DNA from: Ruminococcus flavefaciens
GTDB taxonomy: Bacteria > Bacillota > Clostridia > Oscillospirales > Ruminococcaceae
NCBI GenBank assembly: GCA_002371825.1
Contig: DFHF01000022.1
Span: 5,101 to 69,100, forward strand
Length of the DNA: 64,000 nucleotides
Direction of reading: 5' to 3'
The notes beneath the pieces were generated by a model. That model was not told the origin of the DNA. It worked only from the letters and a program-made list of their open reading frames with translations, and ran no database searches. The position numbers and the translations under genes were made by a program. Below are positions 4,794 to 50,866 of this stretch, one piece after another. Position 1 is the first letter of the stretch, and each line of letters begins with the position of its first letter.

Positions 4794-5828
4794 ATGAAAA
4801 AAGATTTTATGGATATGCTTAATGAGCCTGATGAGGCTGTTATGGAAGAGCTTGCGGAGAGCTCTCCGCTGCCGGACGGCAGGATGAAAAAGAGGATAGT
4901 TGAAAATTGTCTGAGAAAGACAGCTTCGGGGGCTGCTGATGAGGAGGATTATGCCGGAGGAACAGATGTCATCCGCCGTCTCCGCTGGACAGGTCTGGCA
5001 GCTGCGGCAGCCGCATTTGCTATAGTTATCGCAGGAGGTGCCGGTGTGGTGATGCTCGGCAGAAATATGAAAAATACTGCTCCTATGACTGTTGAGAGCA
5101 GCTCCGATACCATTACTGCTCCTGCAGCGGCTGCTATTGAGGAGCCTGCAACTACCCATGACCTTAAGAGCAGCGGCACAGAAGCTGACACTGCCGGAAC
5201 AAAGCTGACCGTTACTGCATATGTTGCCGGTGCGAATGAGACATCTACTGTTACTGTCAAAGGACAGGATGAGGTGACGGGCGAAGAGGATGACCAGTCC
5301 GGAAAAGCTACTGAGCCGGTCAACAGCGGCAGCCAGGAGACTGAAGCTTCCACTGAAAGTGAGAAGGAGCTTCAGTCCTCAGATGCTCCTGATCTTACAG
5401 AGCCGGATATACCGGTCGTCACATTTCCTGACGGCAGTCCACAAGCAGTTCATCTGCCAAACTACGGCGCTGTCCTTTCAGGGAACTGGAACAGTATCGG
5501 AGGTCATGGAAACAGATCATGGTCTTTCTATGCCGGAAAGGATAGCATAAATCCAGCTCACGGCGGAAAAGGCGAATGTTACCTGGACGGTGAACTCTAC
5601 GGAGAATTCAGCTACACCATCTTTGACGGAGAGATAACAATTACATGGACGTCAGGTGAATCAGCCTCCACTGAAATGAAAGGAACCATCTCCGGCATGG
5701 TCAACGGACGTCCTACAGACCCGTTTGATATAACATGGGAGACAGGCGAAACAGACTGCTTCAAATACGATCATAAGGATGAACTTGATAAAAAGGCTTA
5801 TGAACCGTATTTTGTTGAAGGGCGCTGA
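4794..5828 (+). CDS. Putative membrane-anchored anti-sigma factor with extracellular domain
   Basis: Directly downstream of the ECF sigma gene. ~60-aa cytoplasmic N-terminus, one TM helix (LAAAAAAFAIVIAGGAGVVML), S/T/E/P-rich linker, aromatic beta-rich C-terminal domain. Confidence 0.7.
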   Translation: MKKDFMDMLNEPDEAVMEELAESSPLPDGRMKKRIVENCLRKTASGAADEEDYAGGTDVIRRLRWTGLAAAAAAFAIVIAGGAGVVMLGRNMKNTAPMTVESSSDTITAPAAAAIEEPATTHDLKSSGTEADTAGTKLTVTAYVAGANETSTVTVKGQDEVTGEEDDQSGKATEPVNSGSQETEASTESEKELQSSDAPDLTEPDIPVVTFPDGSPQAVHLPNYGAVLSGNWNSIGGHGNRSWSFYAGKDSINPAHGGKGECYLDGELYGEFSYTIFDGEITITWTSGESASTEMKGTISGMVNGRPTDPFDITWETGETDCFKYDHKDELDKKAYEPYFVEGR

Positions 5829-38441: not shown

Positions 38442-41039
<2,598 letters not shown>

Positions 41040-41085
41040 GATAATATCCTCCTTTTATTGTCTTTCTTTATATCTGACAGTCGGA

Positions 41086-41727
41086 CTAAACTATGCCCTG
41101 ACTGATAACGTCTGCGAATCTCTTCTCCAGCACCGGGGCATTCTCGTGAAATCCTGCCGGGTCTGAGAAATATATCTGTACAGCGCTGTTAAGGTCGCTG
41201 AGGTATCTGCTTATAGCTTCACCGGACTGTTCCTCGGAGAGGCCTGAATTCAGGAGCCTTCTTGTGAAGGAGCCGCCGCTTATGGCTGCGGAATATCCGC
41301 TGTATCCTTTGGCTTCAAGTATTGCAGCTTCGGCCTTTGCCCGGTACCGGAAGAAGTTTCCGAACATTTCAGTCAGTACATCGCTCTGTGTGCGTATCTG
41401 AACTTTCAGAGTGCCGATATACTTGTCAGGGAGCCGGTCAAGCTCTACTTTATAATTTATGGTGGGGCGGTATTTGTATTCAAGAGCGGTGCGGAGTGTC
41501 ATAAGCGATGCTGAGCGCTGCTGCTGAATACGGAAGCTGCTGCTTATCATATCAGACATGGTCTGGAAAATATCATGCATCCGCATTTCCGGAGTGACGC
41601 AGGAGAGATTTTCTGCGAGTATCTGATTTATAAGATTGGAGCGGCTTGTGCCTCTCCGATAGGCCTCTGCATCAACTGCTTTGATAACGTCGTCCATGAG
41701 GACGAGGCTATAGACACTTTTTTTCAT
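41086..41727 (-). CDS. Ribbon-helix-helix (CopG-like) DNA-binding protein upstream of clpB
   Basis: N-terminal SVYSLVLMDDVIKAVDAEAYRRGTSRSNLINQIL fits the RHH pattern; RBS ggaggcga; start reassigned to 41727. Confidence 0.7.
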   Translation of the reverse strand: MKKSVYSLVLMDDVIKAVDAEAYRRGTSRSNLINQILAENLSCVTPEMRMHDIFQTMSDMISSSFRIQQQRSASLMTLRTALEYKYRPTINYKVELDRLPDKYIGTLKVQIRTQSDVLTEMFGNFFRYRAKAEAAILEAKGYSGYSAAISGGSFTRRLLNSGLSEEQSGEAISRYLSDLNSAVQIYFSDPAGFHENAPVLEKRFADVISQGIV

Positions 41728-41755
41728 ATTCATCGCCTCCTTTATATATAGAGTA

Positions 41756-41791
41756 TCACGGATTATAGAATTTGTCAAGCGAATTATATAA
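41756..41791 (-). promoter_or_regulatory. Promoter of the RHH-clpB unit with an inverted repeat around the -35
   Basis: TTGACA (41773-41778) -17- TACTCT with an extended TG (the -10 lies at ~41750-41755). IR ttatagaatt (41763-41772) / aattatataa (41782-41791), 9/10 match, 9-bp spacer. Confidence 0.55.
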
Positions 41792-41865
41792 TTTTTCACG
41801 CAAATTTCACATTGCAAAAAAATACGGACATATCCTCACACAATGGCAAAGACAGTCCGCAGGGC

Positions 41866-41893
41866 AAAAAAAATCCTTCCCGTGAGGGAAGGA
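41866..41893 (-). terminator. Intrinsic terminator
   Basis: Minus strand tccttccc-tcac-gggaagga-tttttttt. Confidence 0.85.
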
Positions 41894-42120
41894 AACTTCG
41901 GTTCAAACGGATAAACCGTTTAGCACTGTGAACCGAGCCATAGACAATAAGTTAAAACAAGTTATTGAGAATAGAAAACATGAAAAAATTACAAATGAAA
42001 GGGGTTAGTTTTATGTGTTAATGAAACTTTTTCTATGGCGTGCAAATGAATCAATACTCATTATCAAGCACATGAGAGGGGAGGGCGCTTGATATTGAAT
42101 ACCCATATTCTTCATTTGCT
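41866..42120 (-). ncRNA. Candidate orphan small RNA (~255 nt)
   Basis: Minus-strand TTGCAT-17-TATAAT promoter (42155 to 42127), long 5' hairpin with C-rich loop, intrinsic terminator at 41866-41893; no ORF with an RBS. Confidence 0.55.
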
Positions 42121-42159
42121 GATTGTATTATAGCGCAAAACGAGAATCAATGCAATATA

Positions 42160-42189
42160 CAAAACTACACAAAACTGCACAAAACTGTA
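42160..42189. repeat. Three tandem 10-bp direct repeats
   Basis: caaaactaca / caaaactgca / caaaactgta. Confidence 0.8.
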
Positions 42190-42280
42190 TTTTGGACGCG
42201 TTTTTAGTATTTTTTCATGTCAACTTTTTGTAAATAAGTTTTCTGAATTTATAAATTTACATAATAGCAATGATTTTTCT

Positions 42281-43708
42281 TTAATTCAAGGAGAATATAT
42301 TCTTTCCGTCTTCGACTGTCACTGAGTCAGAACTGCTGCCGTTGACAACGGTGTAAAAACTGCTTCCAATGGCTATCTCGGGAGCCAGCATCATCAGGCT
42401 TCTGAAGCTATTGTGAGGGGCAAAGCTGACCATCTGAGTACCGTCAAGGACCATTTCCACCTTGCTTCCTGCTGAGACAGACTCCCCCAGGTCGACAATA
42501 ATATACGGGGTATTTGAATATGTAGGCGCAGAGACCAGATTTCCGGCCGCAAAGAGGTATCCGCCGGTATAATTGAAGCTTCCGGCTGCATAGATAGAGC
42601 TTTTCTCCTCCTTAGTGCCGCCTGATACTATAGCTGAACCGCCGTTGATATTGATAGTTCCCTTGGATTTTATACCGTTAGTACCGCCTTTTATGTCGAG
42701 AGTTCCGCCGTTTATCGTAACATCGTCGTGAGCGGTGAGACCTGTCTTAACAGCTTTGATATTGTAGATACCGTTTTCGATGATAATATCGTCGTCACTT
42801 GAAATGCCATGAGCGTTTCCTGAGTTTATATTGAGAGTGCCATTGCCCTTGAAACGCAGGGTATCATTGGAGAAGATAACACCGTTGTTTATCTTGTCAT
42901 TTCCGCCGTCGCTGAGAGTATTGACAGTGCCTTCACGGACTTTTATGGTGCATTTTTTAGCTTCGTTGACCAAAATGGCCGGGCCGGAAGAATTGGAGAT
43001 ATCAACTCCGTCAAGGATTACGGTAACATCTTCTTCTGTAGCTGTATTGACACATATCTGTCCTGACATCTTGCCTGAGAAGCGGTAATCTCCGCCGGCG
43101 GTAATGGTGACTACGCTGCCTGATACGGAAACATTTTCTCCGGTGACCTTGGGTGAGGAGCTCAGTGTGATCTCAGCAGTGTATACTTTTTCATCAGAAG
43201 GAGCGTCTGTGGGAGATTGCTGCTCCTGACTGCCGGATGAACTGCTGCCTGAGCTGCTGTTTCCGGAGGAGCTGTTTCCGCCTGAGGAGCTGCTGCCTGA
43301 GGTATTTCCCCCTGATGACTGGCCTGATGATGAGCTGCCGGATGAGGAATTTCCGCTACCGGAGGAAGAGTTTCCGGAAGAGGCCGAAGCTGTATTGGTG
43401 GAACTGCTGCTTCCGGAGTTCTTTGCTGTAGTTGAAGTGGTTTTATTGTCATTATTGGCTTTTGCAGTTGTCTGAGAGTTCTTTTCCGAACTCTTCGTAC
43501 TGCTTTCACTGCTTTCAGAGGTCTCCTCCTCTGTACTGCTGCCGGATACGTCAGAGCTGCTGCTGCCTGCTGACGGAAGATCTGAAACCATTGTTGTCTC
43601 GGGATCGCTGCCAGTTTTTTCAGAGCTGCTGCTTATTATTCCGCAGGAGGCAGTTCCGCCTATCATTGTAATAGAGATGAGTGCCGCAAGAAATCTTTTG
43701 TGGTTCAT
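42281..43708 (-). CDS. Lipoprotein with Ser-rich linker and Cthe_2159-like (DUF4353) beta-helix carbohydrate-binding domain
   Basis: Lipobox GTASC, ~150-aa S/T/G linker, then VVTITAGGDYRFSG, VTVILDGVDI, GVIFSNDTL.F.GNGTLNI, HGISSDDDIII.NG.Y repeats. Confidence 0.8.
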   Translation of the reverse strand: MNHKRFLAALISITMIGGTASCGIISSSSEKTGSDPETTMVSDLPSAGSSSSDVSGSSTEEETSESSESSTKSSEKNSQTTAKANNDNKTTSTTAKNSGSSSSTNTASASSGNSSSGSGNSSSGSSSSGQSSGGNTSGSSSSGGNSSSGNSSSGSSSSGSQEQQSPTDAPSDEKVYTAEITLSSSPKVTGENVSVSGSVVTITAGGDYRFSGKMSGQICVNTATEEDVTVILDGVDISNSSGPAILVNEAKKCTIKVREGTVNTLSDGGNDKINNGVIFSNDTLRFKGNGTLNINSGNAHGISSDDDIIIENGIYNIKAVKTGLTAHDDVTINGGTLDIKGGTNGIKSKGTININGGSAIVSGGTKEEKSSIYAAGSFNYTGGYLFAAGNLVSAPTYSNTPYIIVDLGESVSAGSKVEMVLDGTQMVSFAPHNSFRSLMMLAPEIAIGSSFYTVVNGSSSDSVTVEDGKNIFSLN

Positions 43709-43740
43709 AAAAAACTCTCCTTTACATTTGATTTATATAA

Positions 43741-43769
43741 ATTATACACGATTTTACTGTCATTATCAA
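43741..43769 (-). promoter_or_regulatory. Internal SigA promoter for the DUF4353 gene
   Basis: TTGATA-17-TATAAT on the minus strand. Confidence 0.65.
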
Positions 43770-43772
43770 GTA

Positions 43773-43814
43773 TAAAAAGAAAATGTCAGACCTGATCTCC
43801 TATCGGGTCTGACA
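43773..43814 (-). terminator. Intrinsic terminator after DUF4956
   Basis: Minus strand tgtcagacccgat-agga-gatcaggtctgaca-ttttcttttt. Confidence 0.75.
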
Positions 43815-43848
43815 CATTCTGGTAGGGTAAAAATCTGCAATAAGAAGA

Positions 43849-44595
43849 TCAGCTTTCGTAGATCTTATCGTCGTATTTAAAGAATACAAGATTAATAGTC
43901 ATATTGCCGTTGAGAGCACGAAGCTCATCGATGAATTTTTTCTGGTCGATGTTGTCGTTTACATCAACGCTGTAGATAAGCTCAAAGAGGGTACCGAAGT
44001 TTGTGGTCTTGACTCTGCGGAGCTTATGGAATTCTGTGTACTTATTGAGAGTGGGCTCGAAAACTCCCTGATAATCGAGGTTTTCGGGGATAGTGATCTT
44101 GAGGGTCATATGTCTGCGGCTGTTTTCACCGAAGTTTATGGCTGTAAGTGCGAACATAACTGCAGCAAGAAGGATGAAGAATACTACTGCGAATCCGACA
44201 TATCCTATTCCGCAGGCAACGCCTACTGCCATTGCGAAGAAGATATATGAGATATCCTTCGGGTCACCTGCAACGCTTCGGAATCGGACGAGGCTGAATG
44301 CTCCGGCCACGCTAATAGCGCCTGCGGTGGAGTTGATAACGAGAAGTATCAGTGTGACTATAGTAGGGAGCATTATCATAGTCATGACATAGCTCTGTGA
44401 GTAGCCTTCTTTTTTATGGGTGAGGATGTAGATAAGTCCTATAAGGATACCAAGTATAAGTGCGGCGATGATGCAGAGGAAAAATTCGCCTGTCTTTATC
44501 TCTGCGAGTATGGAATTTGAACCGTTGAGGATAGAATCTGCGTCTTCCTCAGAATAACGAGAGAGAACATTGCCGAAGAAACCATTTGGGAACAT
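43849..44595 (-). CDS. DUF4956 membrane protein
   Basis: 3-4 TM helices, AISVAGAFSLVRFRSVAGDPKDISYIFFAMAVG.ACGIG, soluble C-terminal LKITIPENLDY domain. Confidence 0.85.
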   Translation of the reverse strand: MFPNGFFGNVLSRYSEEDADSILNGSNSILAEIKTGEFFLCIIAALILGILIGLIYILTHKKEGYSQSYVMTMIMLPTIVTLILLVINSTAGAISVAGAFSLVRFRSVAGDPKDISYIFFAMAVGVACGIGYVGFAVVFFILLAAVMFALTAINFGENSRRHMTLKITIPENLDYQGVFEPTLNKYTEFHKLRRVKTTNFGTLFELIYSVDVNDNIDQKKFIDELRALNGNMTINLVFFKYDDKIYES

Positions 44596-44600
44596 ATTTT

Positions 44601-45395
44601 TTACACACTCCTGTTCATGAAAATGCTGTTATTGACCATTGATATGCCGGAAATATAAATATTCTTTTTTGAGCCTTCAACCTGCTCTTTTACGAAATTG
44701 GTATAGGCTTTTCCGTATTTTGAGAAGCTGGTCTTGAATATCTCCATCTCTGAGAGCTTTCTTACCAGCCAGTCCGGCATAGCGTCTGAGACCTTGACCT
44801 CCATAAGTCTCTGGTCGGCACCTATTATGTAGTTGCCGTAGCTTTCGTAATTGAGCCCCAGGTCGTAGCGGCGCTCAGTTATCTTTCTGTCGAAGGTAAG
44901 ACGGAAATCACTGTTTTCCTTGCCGAAGAATGCCTCACGCTGATAGCTGATATACTGCTTCGGAGCGATAGGGTAGTGGTCGAGGAAGGCATCCAGCTCA
45001 CGGAATACCTGTTCTGTAATGTATTTTGATATCTCAGGCTTGGTGCGGTCTTTAAGGTATGCTTCCGACTCAGCCAGAGTCATTGATACACGGCGCTTTG
45101 TAACGATGCCGCCGATTTTTTTCTTGATCTCAAGAAATACTGTATCATCAGGTGCTGCAGGGGAGTAATAGCTGCGAAGTCTGATCTTTTCCTTATAGTA
45201 GGGCTTTGCGAGGGATTCTCTTATAAGGTAATCGTCCGGGGTGTCGTAGTAGATGTTGTAGATGCCGTATTCTTTTCCGCCGATGCAGTACTTATCAGGG
45301 TTCATATACTCATTTATGACTTCCATGAGGCCATGGTACTGATCCATATTAAGCAGGAATTTTATTTCCTTACGGGCAAAAGTATTGATAGCCAT
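44601..45395 (-). CDS. VTC/polyphosphate polymerase (CYTH-like tunnel) domain protein
   Basis: RKEIKF, IYYDTPD, KEKIRLRSY, FLEIKKK, SYQREAF, FRLTFD, LMEVK, FSKY. Confidence 0.88.
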   Translation of the reverse strand: MAINTFARKEIKFLLNMDQYHGLMEVINEYMNPDKYCIGGKEYGIYNIYYDTPDDYLIRESLAKPYYKEKIRLRSYYSPAAPDDTVFLEIKKKIGGIVTKRRVSMTLAESEAYLKDRTKPEISKYITEQVFRELDAFLDHYPIAPKQYISYQREAFFGKENSDFRLTFDRKITERRYDLGLNYESYGNYIIGADQRLMEVKVSDAMPDWLVRKLSEMEIFKTSFSKYGKAYTNFVKEQVEGSKKNIYISGISMVNNSIFMNRSV

Positions 45396-45456
45396 AATTT
45401 CTCCGAAACGGCAGTGCCGCCCGGAGTTTCACACTCCTTTCGTATCGTTTGATTAT

Positions 45457-45489
45457 ATTATAATTTCCCATTCTTAAAATTATCTTAAA
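45457..45489 (-). promoter_or_regulatory. VTC operon promoter with an OmpR/CiaR-type direct repeat in place of the -35
   Basis: Minus strand TTTAAG-ataat-TTTAAG-(10 nt)-TATAAT. Confidence 0.65.
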
Positions 45490-45726
45490 AAATGCGGTGA
45501 ATTTTTGTGATGTCTGACTGCTTCGGCGGTGCTTTATATGATATCTGAATGGGAAATATATAACATGATAACTGAAAAATCACGCAATATCCGTAATTTC
45601 TTTGTATTCTTATTATACCATACATTTCCCGATGTGTTAACAAATAATTAATAAGTCCGCAATAATTTTCATCTTAAAAGACCATAATCGCAAAAAATGG
45701 TCAGAATTTAAGAAAGAAAATAGCAC

Positions 45727-45755
45727 TTGAAAACCTACTTAACCTATGGTATAAT
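45727..45755 (+). promoter_or_regulatory. SigA promoter of the Rrf2 gene
   Basis: TTGAAA-17-TATAAT with extended TG. Confidence 0.65.
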
Positions 45756-45785
45756 AATATTATAAAGTACGAAAGGAGTGGGTGA

Positions 45786-46223
45786 ATGAAGATATCCACT
45801 AAAGGAAGATATGCACTAAGGATGATGTACGACCTGGCACTTCATCGTGAGGATGGCTATATATCCCTTAAAGACATTGCAGAGCGGCAGAATATTTCTA
45901 AAAAATATCTCGAGCAGATAGTTCCTCTTCTTAACAAGAGCGGCGTGTTAAAAACAAACAGAGGAAATAAGGGCGGCTATATGCTTGCCAAAAAAGCTGA
46001 GGATTATACTGTGGGAGATATACTCCGTGCTACTGAGGGCAGTATTGCACCTGTTGCCTGCCTCGAATATGAGCCGAATGAGTGCCCGAGAGCAGGAGAA
46101 TGCTCCACATTATTCGTTTGGGAAGGACTCTATCAGAAGATAAGTGAGTATCTCGACAGCGTGACCCTTCAGGATATAATAGACCGCAACTCCTGTCCCG
46201 AAGGCGGAGACTACTGCATATAA
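45786..46223 (+). CDS. Rrf2 family transcriptional regulator (CymR/IscR-like)
   Basis: MKISTKGRYALR, YLEQI, RGNKGGY.LAK, CLEYEPNECPRAGEC Cys cluster. Confidence 0.92.
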   Translation: MKISTKGRYALRMMYDLALHREDGYISLKDIAERQNISKKYLEQIVPLLNKSGVLKTNRGNKGGYMLAKKAEDYTVGDILRATEGSIAPVACLEYEPNECPRAGECSTLFVWEGLYQKISEYLDSVTLQDIIDRNSCPEGGDYCI

Positions 46224-46226
46224 TGT

Positions 46227-46269
46227 AAATACCCCGCACCAGTGTAAAAGACCTGATGCGGGGCTTTTT
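46227..46269. terminator. Terminator between convergent Rrf2 and lipoprotein genes
   Basis: ccccgcaccag...ctgatgcgggg followed by ctttttt. Confidence 0.7.
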
Positions 46270-46295
46270 ATACATTTTTGGTCAGAAGGGAAGGA

Positions 46296-46949
46296 TCATT
46301 CATTGCTCGGGGATGTAGTATTGTACTCCTGACTGTCAGTAACTGACTCGATAAGAGCATCCTCGTCGAAGGAATCGGTGATCTTGAGCATATCTTCAAG
46401 AGAATACGGGATATTCTTCCATCCGTCATTTTCGAGGAAGACCATACACTCAACATCTGTATCAGCTTCGCCCGTGGTATTTGTAATAGAGCAGGTGAAC
46501 TCATATCCCTCAATTGCTTTGAAATTGCTGGAGCGGGTATAGATACCGGCCTGTGCGGACACGGCAGCGAAGAACTCGTTTGCAGATGCGAGCTGTTCCT
46601 CTGTGAAGGCGACTTTTTTATCTATAGAGACGATCTTGGGCTGCTGCTCTATAAGATCAATATAGCCTTTCTGTCCGGTATTGAAATTCTGGATCGAATT
46701 CTCGTACATATTCTGCTCCTTGAGAGCCTGTATTGTGAGACCGGGGTACATATATTTATAGCAGACTTCTCCGGAATCTGGTGTATATACAGCGGCATAG
46801 GCCTCGTTGAGAGCGTCCTCGGGCGAATCAGCCTTCTGAGCATCACCGCTTACCTCGCTGTAGTTTTTTGAGCTTTTGGGAGTTCCGCAGGCTGTAAGTG
46901 TACAGGCAAGCAATACTGCTGCAAGAGCAGTCAAAGATCTTTTTTTCAT
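46296..46949 (-). CDS. Lipoprotein of unknown function (paralog of 50873-51439)
   Basis: Lipobox TLTAC; shares QL.SA, K..EGYE and CMV..E.DGWK motifs with the 50873-51439 product; own TTGACA-17-TATAAT promoter at 47038-47066. Confidence 0.75.
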   Translation of the reverse strand: MKKRSLTALAAVLLACTLTACGTPKSSKNYSEVSGDAQKADSPEDALNEAYAAVYTPDSGEVCYKYMYPGLTIQALKEQNMYENSIQNFNTGQKGYIDLIEQQPKIVSIDKKVAFTEEQLASANEFFAAVSAQAGIYTRSSNFKAIEGYEFTCSITNTTGEADTDVECMVFLENDGWKNIPYSLEDMLKITDSFDEDALIESVTDSQEYNTTSPSNE

Positions 46950-47084
46950 ATTTTCCTCCGTTATTATGGTTATCCTGAGTCCTCACGGAAAATTTGCCGT
47001 GGGTGACATCCGGAATAATATTTTTGTTTCGCAGGTAATTATATCACGATATTACAGTAATGTCAAATCCGGCGAAGGCGGATA

Positions 47085-48516: not shown

Positions 48517-49413
48517 TTATTTTTTGAAAACAATGTTTATTCTGAACAGTCCGTTGTTTTTTTCTGCGGAAATACTTCCGCCCAGAAGCTCTGTGAACTG
48601 TTTTGCTATAGCCAGTCCCAGACCGGTATTGCCCTTTGTACGGGAGATGTCTGTGGTGTAGAACTCATCGAAGACTCTTTCCGTATCGAGCTCAGGGTCA
48701 TTGAGCCCGTTCTCGAAGGTCAGGGAAATCGTCTCTCCGCCGCTGACTGATATAACGAGATCATCTGAACCGTGCTTCAGCGCATTGCCTATCAGGTTAT
48801 CGAATATCCTCATGAGCATATTCCTGTTCGAGATCATCTTTATTCTGCCGGAGCTGCATTTAAGGTCGATCTTACGGCCTCTTGCGGAGTAGTCATCGTA
48901 GTAGTGAGCCACAGCCTCCTCCAGTATGCCTGTCAGGTTAACGGGCTCAGTTTCCGGTGACTTTCCGGAGGATATCATTTTTGAGAACTCAAAGAAGGAA
49001 TCAATGAGCTCCTCCAGTCTAAGCAGTCTTTTTTCTGCCGTCACTATACTGTGGGAGCGTTCTTCGCTGCTGATATTATCATCCTGAGCCATAGAGATAT
49101 GCCCCATAGCAGAGGTGAGAGGAGTTCTCAGGTCGTGGGAGATATTCGTCATCATCTGTTCAAGATCGTGATTTTTCCGCTGGTATTCAGCATCGTACCG
49201 ACGGATATCCTTGAGTATGGAGTTCACTTCATTTATAAGCTCCGGAGGCAAAGCTCTGCCGCTGGTATGGAGCAGCTGGTTAGTATCCTCTTTTCTTATC
49301 TCACGGAGCTTTTCAGCAGCTTTAATGGCGGCTCTGTATCTGATGATAAGCACAGCCAGAAGAACTGCACAGATGATGCTGAGAATTATAACAGCTGTCA
49401 ACATAGGCTGCAC
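48517..49413 (-). CDS. Sensor histidine kinase (single N-terminal TM)
   Basis: H-box ISHDLRTPLT, N-box NLIGNALKH, G2 GNTGLGLAIAK. Confidence 0.92.
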   Translation of the reverse strand: MQPMLTAVIILSIICAVLLAVLIIRYRAAIKAAEKLREIRKEDTNQLLHTSGRALPPELINEVNSILKDIRRYDAEYQRKNHDLEQMMTNISHDLRTPLTSAMGHISMAQDDNISSEERSHSIVTAEKRLLRLEELIDSFFEFSKMISSGKSPETEPVNLTGILEEAVAHYYDDYSARGRKIDLKCSSGRIKMISNRNMLMRIFDNLIGNALKHGSDDLVISVSGGETISLTFENGLNDPELDTERVFDEFYTTDISRTKGNTGLGLAIAKQFTELLGGSISAEKNNGLFRINIVFKK

Positions 49414-50088
49414 CTACTTTTTCATCCTGTAGCCCACTCCCCAGACTGTCTCGATATAATCGCAGTCAGGGTCACATTCCTTAAGCTTTTTTCTAAGCTT
49501 GCTTATGTGGACATTAAGGGTGTTGTCGTCAGCGGAGTTTTCGTAGTCCCAGACGGTATCGTAAATCATGCTCTTTGTACAGGTGCGGGAGGGGTTTTTC
49601 ATAAGCAGGGCAAGGAGTTCAAATTCGTGTTTTGAGAGCTCCATGTCCTTTCCGCAGCAGAGTGCAGTGAATGAGGAACGGTCCAGCTCTATATTTTTAT
49701 ATGAGAGCTTGTCACTTGCCGGCTCAGAATTGCTGCTTCTGAGCCTTACTGCTATTCTTGCCAGAAGCTCGTCATTATGGAACGGCTTTGTAATGTAGTC
49801 ATCGGCGCCCAGCACAAAGAGATCCACTTTTTTGCTGATATCGTGAATGGCGCTCATTACTATTACCGGAACGTTTTTAGCGGCTTTCAGTTCCTTGATT
49901 ATCTCATCGCCGTTTTTTCCGGGGAGCATGAGGTCAAGAAGTATCAGATCGATATTGCTGCCGTGGACAAGAAGTCCCTCAGTGCCTGAGAAGGCGCTGA
50001 CAGTATCGTATCCGTTTCTTTTCAGCAGAGTGCTGAGCATATTATTTATATCCGGGTCGTCTTCGATAATAAGGATAGTCTTATTCAT
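49414..50088 (-). CDS. OmpR-family response regulator
   Basis: ILIIEDD, ILLDLMLPG, GADDYITKPF, winged helix LNVHISKLRKKL...IETVWGVGYR; start reassigned to 50088. Confidence 0.93.
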   Translation of the reverse strand: MNKTILIIEDDPDINNMLSTLLKRNGYDTVSAFSGTEGLLVHGSNIDLILLDLMLPGKNGDEIIKELKAAKNVPVIVMSAIHDISKKVDLFVLGADDYITKPFHNDELLARIAVRLRSSNSEPASDKLSYKNIELDRSSFTALCCGKDMELSKHEFELLALLMKNPSRTCTKSMIYDTVWDYENSADDNTLNVHISKLRKKLKECDPDCDYIETVWGVGYRMKK

Positions 50089-50866
50089 TGTTATCCTCCA
50101 GAATAGCGTTGATCTCTCTGAGAAGGCTCTCAGGCATATATCTTGCACTCCGTACAGCAGAAACACCGTGAGCTTTCAGTTTTTCACGGGACAGCAGCTC
50201 CTTGCTGTAGCGTCTTATGAGCCTGAGCTTCATGACCTTCTTCATACTGACGTTTTTGCCGTTATAGATGTAGGGGATATCGCTTTCAATCACCTCGCAT
50301 CGGTAAATCACCGCTGATACTGGAGCGGCCATATATATGAACACATCATCTCCGGCAGAGACTTTTCCGGTCTGCTTCCAGTTTATCATGCCGTCACGCT
50401 GAAAGTCCTGTTCAAGGTCGTAGTAGGCAGGATTTGCAGGAACCAGCCAGCTCTTTTTGCCTGAGGAGGTTGAACGTGCTTTGCCGCTGCCGCCTGCAAG
50501 GCCGTAGCTCATATCCACCAGCGGAAATATCTCCTCAGCCGGTACAGAGCCGTCAAGGAGAATGGTTATCCAGCTGTTCTTGTTCATATGATAAGCCGGG
50601 AGTATCCCGCTGCGGCAGCGCAGAGAGCCTGCCATAAGGGGATCGCATTTGACATTCATTATACTTATCGTGGAACTGTCCGGCAGTCCAAGTTTATCTC
50701 CGCCGACAGTCATAAACAGGGCATACCATTTTTTATTATCCTGTCTTCTGACAGCGCAGGCATCCGGAGTACGCACCCAGAGGTATTCCGGCTGACCGCC
50801 GAATCTGTCCTTTATATACCCGAGGATATCCCCGGAAAGATCTGTATTCACAGCTTTAACCTCCAA
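50081..50866 (-). CDS. MmcQ/YjbR domain fused to an EVE/PUA-like domain
   Basis: N-terminal KWYALFM...NVKCDP...GILPAYHMNKNSWITI; C-terminal SWLVPANP...GDDVFIYMAAP.SA..YRCEV. Confidence 0.75.
   Translation of the reverse strand: MEVKAVNTDLSGDILGYIKDRFGGQPEYLWVRTPDACAVRRQDNKKWYALFMTVGGDKLGLPDSSTISIMNVKCDPLMAGSLRCRSGILPAYHMNKNSWITILLDGSVPAEEIFPLVDMSYGLAGGSGKARSTSSGKKSWLVPANPAYYDLEQDFQRDGMINWKQTGKVSAGDDVFIYMAAPVSAVIYRCEVIESDIPYIYNGKNVSMKKVMKLRLIRRYSKELLSREKLKAHGVSAVRSARYMPESLLREINAILEDNNE

Follow-up and report, generated by a model that had tools for sequence, protein, structure and literature searches.

A conserved three-gene VTC–DUF4956–Cthe_2159 module in Ruminococcus flavefaciens and its relatives

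A stretch of 64,000 nucleotides from Ruminococcus flavefaciens (the window; positions 5101–69100 of contig C55 in a 2.83 Mb genome assembly of 69 contigs) carries three minus-strand genes in a row, encoding a VTC-domain protein, a DUF4956 membrane protein and a lipoprotein of the Cthe_2159 family. These genes constitute a real, conserved and expressed module. Its Cthe_2159-linked form adds, as far as the literature searched shows, an undescribed version to a gene set already recorded in print without explanation. A first-pass annotation, made from the nucleotide letters, had singled out the cluster as a candidate system for polyphosphate synthesis and export. The three open reading frames (ORFs) it listed, with their coordinates and strand, were confirmed by an ORF check and by Pfam matches:

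44601–45395, minus strand, VTC-domain protein of 264 amino acids (Pfam PF09359)
43849–44595, minus strand, DUF4956 membrane protein of 248 amino acids (Pfam PF16316)
42281–43708, minus strand, Cthe_2159-family beta-helix lipoprotein of 475 amino acids (Pfam PF14262)

NCBIfam provided a model for none of these three window proteins. The VTC stop codon and the DUF4956 start codon are 5 nt apart (taa-aaaat-atg), exactly the spacing first read from the sequence, and the Shine-Dalgarno AGGAG serving DUF4956 is located within the 3′ end of the VTC gene.

Pairing of VTC with DUF4956 was surveyed in a phylum sample of 251 genomes. VTC occurred in 38 of these (15%) and DUF4956 in the same 38, at equal copy numbers; the other 213 were without them, and one additional genome gave a sub-threshold DUF4956 match only. 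DUF4956 was found within 1 kb and on the same strand at 41 of 44 VTC places. Co-occurrence, named at the first pass as a check on the pair, was perfect in the sample. A further 80 named loci of the window's clade, taken from GTDB species genomes, placed DUF4956 directly after VTC in 77 cases. The VTC–DUF4956–lipoprotein arrangement lies far beyond chance. A pairing exception was seen in genome G190, where one VTC gene (L013) stands alone, flanked by glycosidase-like and ATPase genes, and a DUF4956–Cthe_2159 pair with no VTC upstream (L057) lies on another contig.

Searches using concatenated VTC–DUF4956 pairs as the query revealed natural single proteins with both Pfam domains. Clean in-frame fusions (P0121, P0123–P0125, P0127 and P0130) represent at least four lineages from independent samples and keep the MEIK/MEVK, FSKYG and VRFR motifs. 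P0121 was found in contigs of three samples, and the P0123 lineage in at least 24 contigs, mostly as variant P0126. The domain order in fusions is always VTC then DUF4956. Together with the pairing statistics, this points to VTC and DUF4956 being, very probably, coupled both physically and functionally. A further candidate, P0122, looks like a frameshift artefact. Variant P0126 (L148–L151) is the most widespread allele in fusion lineage P0123–P0125. It carries a compensated frameshift of 27 codons that replaces ...IYKTSFSKYG..., with loss of SKY and of the equivalents of Vtc4 S457 and K458, and the fusion remains in frame. P0126 may represent an inactivated enzyme kept as an extension of the membrane protein.

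The third partner was investigated in gene maps drawn for 40 VTC neighbourhoods. Four layouts recurred: VTC–DUF4956–Cthe_2159, frequently accompanied by an OmpR-type regulator and histidine kinase in divergent orientation; VTC–DUF4956–CotH; DUF4956 and then VTC behind a large LTD-rich CotH; and pelD–G followed by CotH, CotH, VTC and DUF4956. CotH was present in 31 of 38 VTC genomes compared to 5 of 213 others, and Cthe_2159 in 14 of 38 compared to 4 of 213 (18 of 19 matched genomes counted, the weakest, sub-threshold one being dropped); both comparisons ignore phylogeny and are only indicative. CotH was within 5 kb of 26 of the 44 VTC genes. One or other partner occurred in 36 of the 38 VTC genomes, the two exceptions being fragmented assemblies.

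A maximum-likelihood tree of VTC proteins placed the window protein in a clade of 10 with support of 100/99 and a long stem. This clade holds all 6 VTCs adjoining Cthe_2159 and none of the 21 adjoining CotH. Within the 80 further clade loci, Cthe_2159 was found within 6 kb in 43 (38 of 61 when counting loci with enough sequence) and directly after DUF4956 in 28, with CotH nearby in 3. Hosts include Ruminococcus, Oscillospiraceae, Clostridium, Romboutsia, Sarcina, Acetobacterium, Lachnospiraceae and Paenibacillus, among others. Ruminococcus relatives keep the triad amid different flanking genes. Loci of the fusion lineage also carry a full-length Cthe_2159 lipoprotein gene (E 3e-99), which shares 11 nt with the end of the fused gene. 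On the evidence of tree and gene order, the window pair falls in a distinct clade of strong support that is tied to Cthe_2159 and not to CotH. The link of the lipoprotein to VTC–DUF4956 drawn at the first pass holds for this clade, in which Cthe_2159 appears as a genuine, non-obligatory partner. No description of the clade was found in the literature searched.

The phylum-sample maps also bear on the reported association of the CotH set with Pel. Genes of the pel locus stand beside VTC–DUF4956–CotH only in L022, L026, L027, L039 and L043. The trio occurs with no pel genes nearby in most phylum-sample loci (for example L011, L017, L018, L025, L028 and L031, and further L034, L036, L037, L042, L045 and others). 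This pel-free majority conflicts with the statement that the trio had been found only within Pel loci (PMC12345266, 2025).

The window VTC protein matched PF09359 over 2–232 of 235 model positions (E 9e-42; 143.6 bits, cut-off 23). It consists of a single Pfam domain, with no SPX domain and no transmembrane (TM) segment, and is 78–93% identical to proteins named from Ruminococcus metagenome-assembled genomes. The first-pass description of a VTC/CYTH-tunnel protein with seven intact motifs was upheld both in the sequence (KEIK 9–12, KIRLR 70–74, EIKKK 89–93, YQREA 151–155, RLTFD 165–169, MEVK 198–201 and SKY 225–227) and in an alignment of 33 bacterial VTC sequences. There are 17 invariant columns in this alignment, and the motifs contain invariant columns. 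A search of the PDB with the single VTC sequence gave no match. A profile of the 33 bacterial relatives matched only Vtc4 (3g3q, E 8.5e-23), Vtc2 and Vtc3 in the PDB, with no sequence match to TTM/CYTH hydrolases or cyclases.

Residues of the window protein were mapped onto Vtc4 as K12 (K200), R72 (R264), R74 (R266), E89 (E279), K91 (K281), K100 (K294), Y151 (Y359), R153 (R361), R165 (R373), E199 (E426), K201 (K428), S225 (S457) and K226 (K458). All of these tunnel residues are kept in the window protein and are invariant in the 33 bacterial sequences, except for S225 (at least 90% conserved). Ten of them are catalytic tunnel residues in Vtc4 (K200, R264, R266, K281, Y359, R361, R373, E426, S457 and K458); all ten are present and nine are invariant. 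The combination R264A/R266A/E426N is a published catalytically impaired Vtc4 mutant (PMC9911596). An AlphaFold2 model of the window protein (pLDDT 91.6) compared by Foldseek with the PDB gave the Vtc4 TTM domain as best match (TM-score 0.66–0.69). Vtc4 chains took ranks 1–8 and 11 (TM-score 0.57–0.69, E down to 2.5e-13) and the inactive Vtc3 and Vtc2 ranks 9, 10, 12 and 13. Fold similarity was lower for YgiF, AtTTM3 and class IV cyclases (TM-score 0.38–0.50). As profile, residue map and model are all Vtc4-like, the protein is assigned to the VTC domain family with an intact Vtc4-type set of active-site residues. The likeness to Vtc4 suggested at the first pass is thus seen in residues and in predicted fold.

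The membrane protein matched PF16316 (E 2e-15; 57.5 bits, cut-off 30.6). It had been annotated with 3–4 TM segments, which the AlphaFold2 model (pLDDT 83) does not bear out: five helices (35–59, 67–87, 90–106, 112–130 and 133–152) are followed by an ACT-like C-terminal domain (162–238) of beta-alpha-beta-beta-alpha-beta order. This domain gave weak ACT/ferredoxin-like fold matches only (E above 0.01). Across 34 DUF4956 sequences Y56, G98, S101, R104, F105, R106, G125 and G129 are invariant, and the third helix holds the invariant motif G-x-x-S-x-x-R-F-R. Pfam matches to MgtC at E up to 1 were obtained for 22 of the 34 proteins (best 1.9e-4), and hhalign aligned DUF4956 with MgtC over 143 columns at a probability of 93% and E 3e-7, using an MgtC profile of only three sequences. 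This agrees with the description of the Streptococcus intermedius homologue as an MgtC-like TM region plus ACT (PMC12345266). Two observations concern topology. The VTC–DUF4956 fusions P0121 and P0123 put the DUF4956 N-terminus in the cytoplasm, and the distribution of K+R over the five helices in the 34 sequences favours N-out, C-in; loop 104–111 averages 2.7 K+R, and the N-terminal flank is acidic.

The first-pass picture of a lipoprotein with a Ser-rich stalk and a beta-helix domain was supported by its N-terminal signal, its composition and its family matches. A signal peptide ending in ...GGTASC, with its Cys, is followed by a low-complexity Ser/Gly/Thr stretch of ~150 residues and then by the beta-helix. 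Residues 196–369 matched PF14262 (E 1e-45; 156.6 bits, cut-off 25.8), covering only model positions 1–178 of 262, and PDB entry 4peu, the Cthe_2159 structure, was matched at E 3.2e-22. Cthe_2159 partners of the module in other genomes all have lipoprotein N-termini, and CotH partners of VTC–DUF4956 carry either a TM or a lipoprotein N-terminus. Binding to cellulose and polygalacturonic acid has been reported for the Cthe_2159 family (Close et al. 2014, as cited in 10.1101/401869). Binding alone is reported, with no shown catalytic activity, and it is that of the founding member only.

Expression was followed in rumen metatranscriptome assemblies, in which 34–69% of the region's sequence words are present; these data are unstranded assembled contigs. 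The signals in and around the cluster are:

43778–43820, minus strand, intrinsic-terminator-like hairpin followed by UUUUCUUUUU, between the DUF4956 and lipoprotein genes (by fold energy), leaky (by RNA contigs)
43769–43741, minus strand, promoter-like site TTGATA-17-TATAAT of the lipoprotein gene (consensus scan, 11/12 positions)
45612–45640, minus strand, uncertain candidate promoter of the VTC–DUF4956 transcript, TTAACA-17-TG-TATAAT (consensus scan, 11/12 positions)
45786–46223, plus strand, divergent Rrf2-family regulator (Pfam PF02082, E 5e-41)

The 140 nt between DUF4956 and the lipoprotein gene contain the hairpin (-21.9 kcal/mol, z -4.66) with its U-run, then the promoter-like site, then a GGAG ribosome-binding site; in relatives this gap is just 38–84 nt. 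One X28 RNA contig covers 42869–45458, beginning in the VTC leader, taking in DUF4956 and ending within the lipoprotein gene, and one X24 contig covers 41985–44103, crossing the terminator. RNA depth falls ~8-fold at the hairpin in X26. In X24 the lipoprotein part reaches a depth of 201 compared to 92 for VTC–DUF4956. The three genes are expressed in vivo and partly co-transcribed. RNA contigs that cross the hairpin, together with unequal depths on its two sides, indicate a leaky terminator and, probably, an additional promoter belonging to the lipoprotein gene. The first-pass proposal of a separate lipoprotein promoter behind a terminator is therefore supported as to both elements (hairpin with U-run, promoter-like TTGATA-17-TATAAT), but the terminator does not isolate the gene. 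The RNA contigs have their 5′ ends at 45433–45458 and none covers 45575–45725, which puts the true start of VTC–DUF4956 at ~45458–45605. Exact start sites are not fixed by these contigs, as they are assembled and unstranded.

An Rfam search of 41000–47000, VTC leader included, at E up to 1 returned only two chance-level matches, and a riboswitch or known RNA in that leader was rejected. The Rrf2 regulator also lies upstream in L063–L065, the closest relatives; L062, L066 and L067 have thiamine genes and a GDSL lipase in its place. Its place in the module is doubtful, as it is a neighbour in the closest relatives only. Control of the module by the histidine kinase and response regulator encoded at 48517–50166, 3 kb upstream, was rejected, since contig C46 carries the orthologue of the two-component system that accompanies the clade. 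That pair (C46:12922–15657), an OmpR-type response regulator (50–56% identical) and a histidine kinase (33–43% identical), is orthologous to the pair beside VTC–DUF4956 in many genomes and is unlinked here. A PhoR/PnpS-like name for it was rejected, with NCBIfam scores all far under the cut-offs.

The strongest RNA signal nearby lies outside the cluster. Positions 41950–42105 (minus strand presumed), upstream of an ORF at 41086–41817, reach depths of 1700–2950 in three rumen metatranscriptomes, compared to 18–200 for the VTC cluster. This peak begins right behind a promoter-like site at 42150–42122, had no Rfam, tRNA or tmRNA match, and has the appearance of a long leader expressed at a very high level. 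One RNA contig from the peak continues into a diverged copy of the downstream ORF, whose 243-aa product has a weak RHH/BrnA/DUF6364-like N-terminus.

Elsewhere in the genome, four secreted CotH proteins are encoded, all on other contigs and none near the window pair. One of these (C33:6232–8973) is a 913-aa secreted protein in which a Cthe_2159 domain (150–382) precedes a CotH kinase domain (532–829); it has a signal peptide and a dockerin-like N-terminal segment. The CotH protein on C40 has a Pfam dockerin match, that on C30 a C-terminal segment judged dockerin-like by eye; further modules in the CotH proteins are LTD and Fn3-associated. At C16:19014–23036 a second Cthe_2159 lipoprotein gene is divergent to an adjoining ppk1, with PPK2 15 kb off. 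This neighbourhood was not kept in 13 other Cthe_2159 loci, and none of 29 more Cthe_2159-like loci in the genus, including 16 with 56–68% identity, had ppk1 within 1.5 kb. It is probably a chance adjacency, as it is not conserved elsewhere, and was rejected as a gene link between Cthe_2159 and polyphosphate.

We tentatively propose that VTC, DUF4956 and the lipoprotein form one envelope module in which the enzyme, docked on DUF4956, hands a phosphate polymer outward to the beta-helix; we hold this as a possibility of some weight, short of a probable account. Docked on DUF4956 from the cytoplasmic side, the VTC protein would bind ATP in its tunnel and make polyphosphate, or at least handle a chain of triphosphate or polyphosphate. 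The invariant Arg-Phe-Arg of DUF4956, which is probably oligomeric, would serve to move this chain out of the cell or, alternatively, to relay the enzyme's state to the other side of the membrane. By analogy with its family, the lipoprotein on its Ser-rich stalk may then bind or process a polyanion in the wall zone. Polyphosphate synthesis, passage through DUF4956 and polyanion binding are steps that we infer. The genome encodes both PPK1 and PPK2 on contig C16, so that ordinary polyphosphate there does not depend on the VTC enzyme. Because these two kinases cover ordinary cytoplasmic polyphosphate, a specialised, surface-directed purpose is suggested for the module.

A bolder form of this proposal appears distinctly unlikely: a PPK-independent, Vtc4-type machine of Firmicutes that makes polyphosphate at the membrane and threads it out through an oligomer of the MgtC-like DUF4956, in one clade to a dedicated lipid-anchored beta-helix protein, which captures or cuts the chain in the wall zone and so gives rise to an extracellular polyphosphate layer on a rumen bacterium that degrades fibre. 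The beta-helix is related to pectate-lyase-like polyanion binders. Such a layer would help the cell to capture cations or to adhere, or would store phosphoryl groups for its secreted CotH kinases.

Several points weigh against a polymer-exporting module. The tunnel residue set is largely common to all TTM enzymes, so its conservation cannot tell polymerases from triphosphatases, and sequence cannot decide whether the window VTC polymerises or merely cleaves. The literature searched yielded no biochemical test of a bacterial VTC-domain protein. The membrane part of DUF4956 matched no PDB fold, the TM chains of Vtc1, Vtc3 and Vtc4 included, and DUF202, the Vtc1-type domain, was found nowhere in the genome. 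DUF4956 is instead predicted to be a distant relative of MgtC and not Vtc1-like; members of the MgtC family are known as regulators or binding partners, and MgtC itself is described, as cited in PMC12345266, as a binder of other proteins and not a channel. The first-pass view of DUF4956 as an analogue of the small 3-TM Vtc domain accordingly failed on both descent and fold, and a Vtc1-like channel was rejected, neither sequence nor fold giving a match. Since DUF4956 is predicted to be MgtC-related and has no match to the Vtc TM fold, a Vtc1-like small channel subunit is an analogy at best. Its topology is also in conflict: the N-terminus should be cytoplasmic, as it is fused behind a cytoplasmic VTC in natural fusions, but the charge distribution indicates the opposite orientation. 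The lipoprotein is missing from 23 of the 61 loci with room for it, and from some close relatives. Deletion of VTC in S. intermedius brought no reported change (PMC12345266).

The main rival is a regulatory device with no export, which we consider possible but on the unlikely side. VTC would here act as a TTM-type hydrolase or by sensing ATP, triphosphate or polyphosphate, and DUF4956, like MgtC, would bind and modulate other membrane proteins (the ATP synthase, a glycan synthase or a histidine kinase, for example), such that the module tunes how surface glycans and glycan-binding proteins, the lipoprotein among them, are produced or displayed. The predicted distant homology of DUF4956 to MgtC, with a modelled TM region plus ACT-like domain as in MgtC, favours this rival, and ACT-like domains typically sense ligands. 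An OmpR-type two-component system stands beside the pair in 21 of the 80 clade loci and in many phylum-sample loci, although the matching system is unlinked in this genome. The S. intermedius deletions, the sole published genetics of this gene set in the literature searched, point the same way. Loss of DUF4956 or CotH lowered aggregation, with Pel up in the DUF4956 mutant and down in the CotH mutant, and no change was reported for the VTC mutant (PMC12345266). Regulation would however leave unexplained the invariance across the mapped polymerase catalytic residues and the greater fold likeness to Vtc4 than to TTM hydrolases. Nor does it account for a third partner that is always extracytoplasmic and membrane-tethered, and the invariant RFR motif of DUF4956 is not common to MgtC.

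Supply of a phosphoryl donor was considered next and appears unlikely. VTC–DUF4956 would export a short phosphate chain or activated phosphoryl for use by exported enzymes, namely CotH kinases in most lineages and Cthe_2159 here, with the lipoprotein as enzyme or adaptor. Targets would be wall polymers, surface proteins and plant-cell-wall substrates, with the Cthe_2159–CotH fusion and dockerin-bearing CotH included among the users. The frequency of CotH in VTC genomes and its closeness to VTC genes are in line with this, as are the four secreted CotH proteins of the genome, one of them fused to Cthe_2159 and that on C40 with its dockerin match; ATP would not be expected outside the membrane. 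Against this, no CotH is adjacent in the window and few are in its clade, and we know of no CotH-fold kinase that uses polyphosphate. Cthe_2159, as a proposed user, is likewise reported to bind, with no catalytic activity shown (10.1101/401869).

It is very unlikely that VTC–DUF4956 alone is the unit and the lipoprotein an independent plant-fibre- or pectin-binding surface protein with its own promoter. The strong terminator and promoter-like site between the genes, RNA depths of the two parts that differ in both directions among samples, the loci that lack the lipoprotein, and Cthe_2159 paralogues elsewhere in the genome that do not adjoin VTC would all fit. Such independence is countered by an adjacency that recurs in Paenibacillus, Clostridium, Romboutsia, Lachnospiraceae and Ruminococcus and is limited to one VTC clade, by the gene overlap where VTC and DUF4956 are fused, by the 14 of 19 Cthe_2159-matched phylum-sample genomes that are VTC genomes, and by RNA contigs that cross the terminator. 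A role as a Pel accessory was rejected, as PelG was not found in the genome.

The envelope-module proposal would have consequences beyond this genome. If the VTC protein makes polyphosphate, the module would be a third bacterial route to the polymer and the first one coupled to the envelope. It could then act as a phosphate source for secreted kinase-like and polyanion-binding proteins where ATP is lacking. If the pair is instead an MgtC-like regulator, a first function would be gained for two large families; as had been surmised at the first pass, no established function for the bacterial VTC–DUF4956 pair was found in the literature searched. Two recent reviews treat VTC-type polymerases as eukaryotic and PPK1/PPK2 as bacterial (PMC12526157, PMC10657179). 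A Vtc4-like enzyme with intact catalytic residues in the VTC-bearing share of the sampled phylum contrasts with this eukaryote-only view. The Cthe_2159-linked clade offers a compact three-gene system for testing, with natural single-chain fusions as constructs and cultured hosts (Clostridium sartagoforme, Romboutsia and Paenibacillus).

Among the closest systems known is the cotH/polyphosphate-polymerase/DUF4956 set described as accessory genes of Gram-positive pel loci (10.1101/768473), a published CotH context that the first pass did not take in. The same cotH/VTC/DUF4956 set is held by NELoc-2 of Clostridium perfringens, where the membrane protein is mislabelled tubulin/FtsZ (PMC2879425). 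These sets share with the window the VTC–DUF4956 core pair and an exported third partner. The window differs in having a Cthe_2159 lipoprotein in place of CotH, in belonging to a separate clade and in lying in a genome without PelG. Of the individual proteins, DUF4956 aligns in its membrane region with MgtC/SapB (PF02308), and its model shows about five helices and a small alpha/beta C-terminal domain, as in MgtC. Unlike MgtC/SapB, for which the search for MgtC found no member in the genome, DUF4956 is a separate Pfam family that carries G-x-x-S-x-x-R-F-R and is always paired with VTC. The lipoprotein shares its beta-helix family domain with Cthe_2159 of Clostridium thermocellum (4peu/4phb), but is lipid-anchored on a long Ser-rich stalk and genetically tied to VTC–DUF4956.

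The TTM/CYTH hydrolases and cyclases (E. coli YgiF, AtTTM3 and CyaB-type class IV enzymes) have the same eight-stranded tunnel with basic and acidic lining as the window VTC, which is larger and has VTC-type insertions. CYTH enzymes carry an ExExK motif; at this site the bacterial VTC proteins have R-x-E-x-K, and Vtc4 has T198 at the E10 position. The eukaryotic VTC complex (yeast Vtc4/Vtc3 or Vtc2/Vtc1; 3g3q, 7ytj and 8i6v) has the same Pfam tunnel domain and the same mapped residues. Both systems link their enzyme to a membrane protein, and the bacterial fusions repeat the TTM–TM order of Vtc4. The bacterial module differs in having no SPX domain and no DUF202 TM domain, whether fused or elsewhere in the genome, and in drawing its membrane partner from another, probably MgtC-like, superfamily. 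Where the eukaryotic complex serves the vacuole lumen, the predicted activity of the bacterial module would be directed to the cell exterior.

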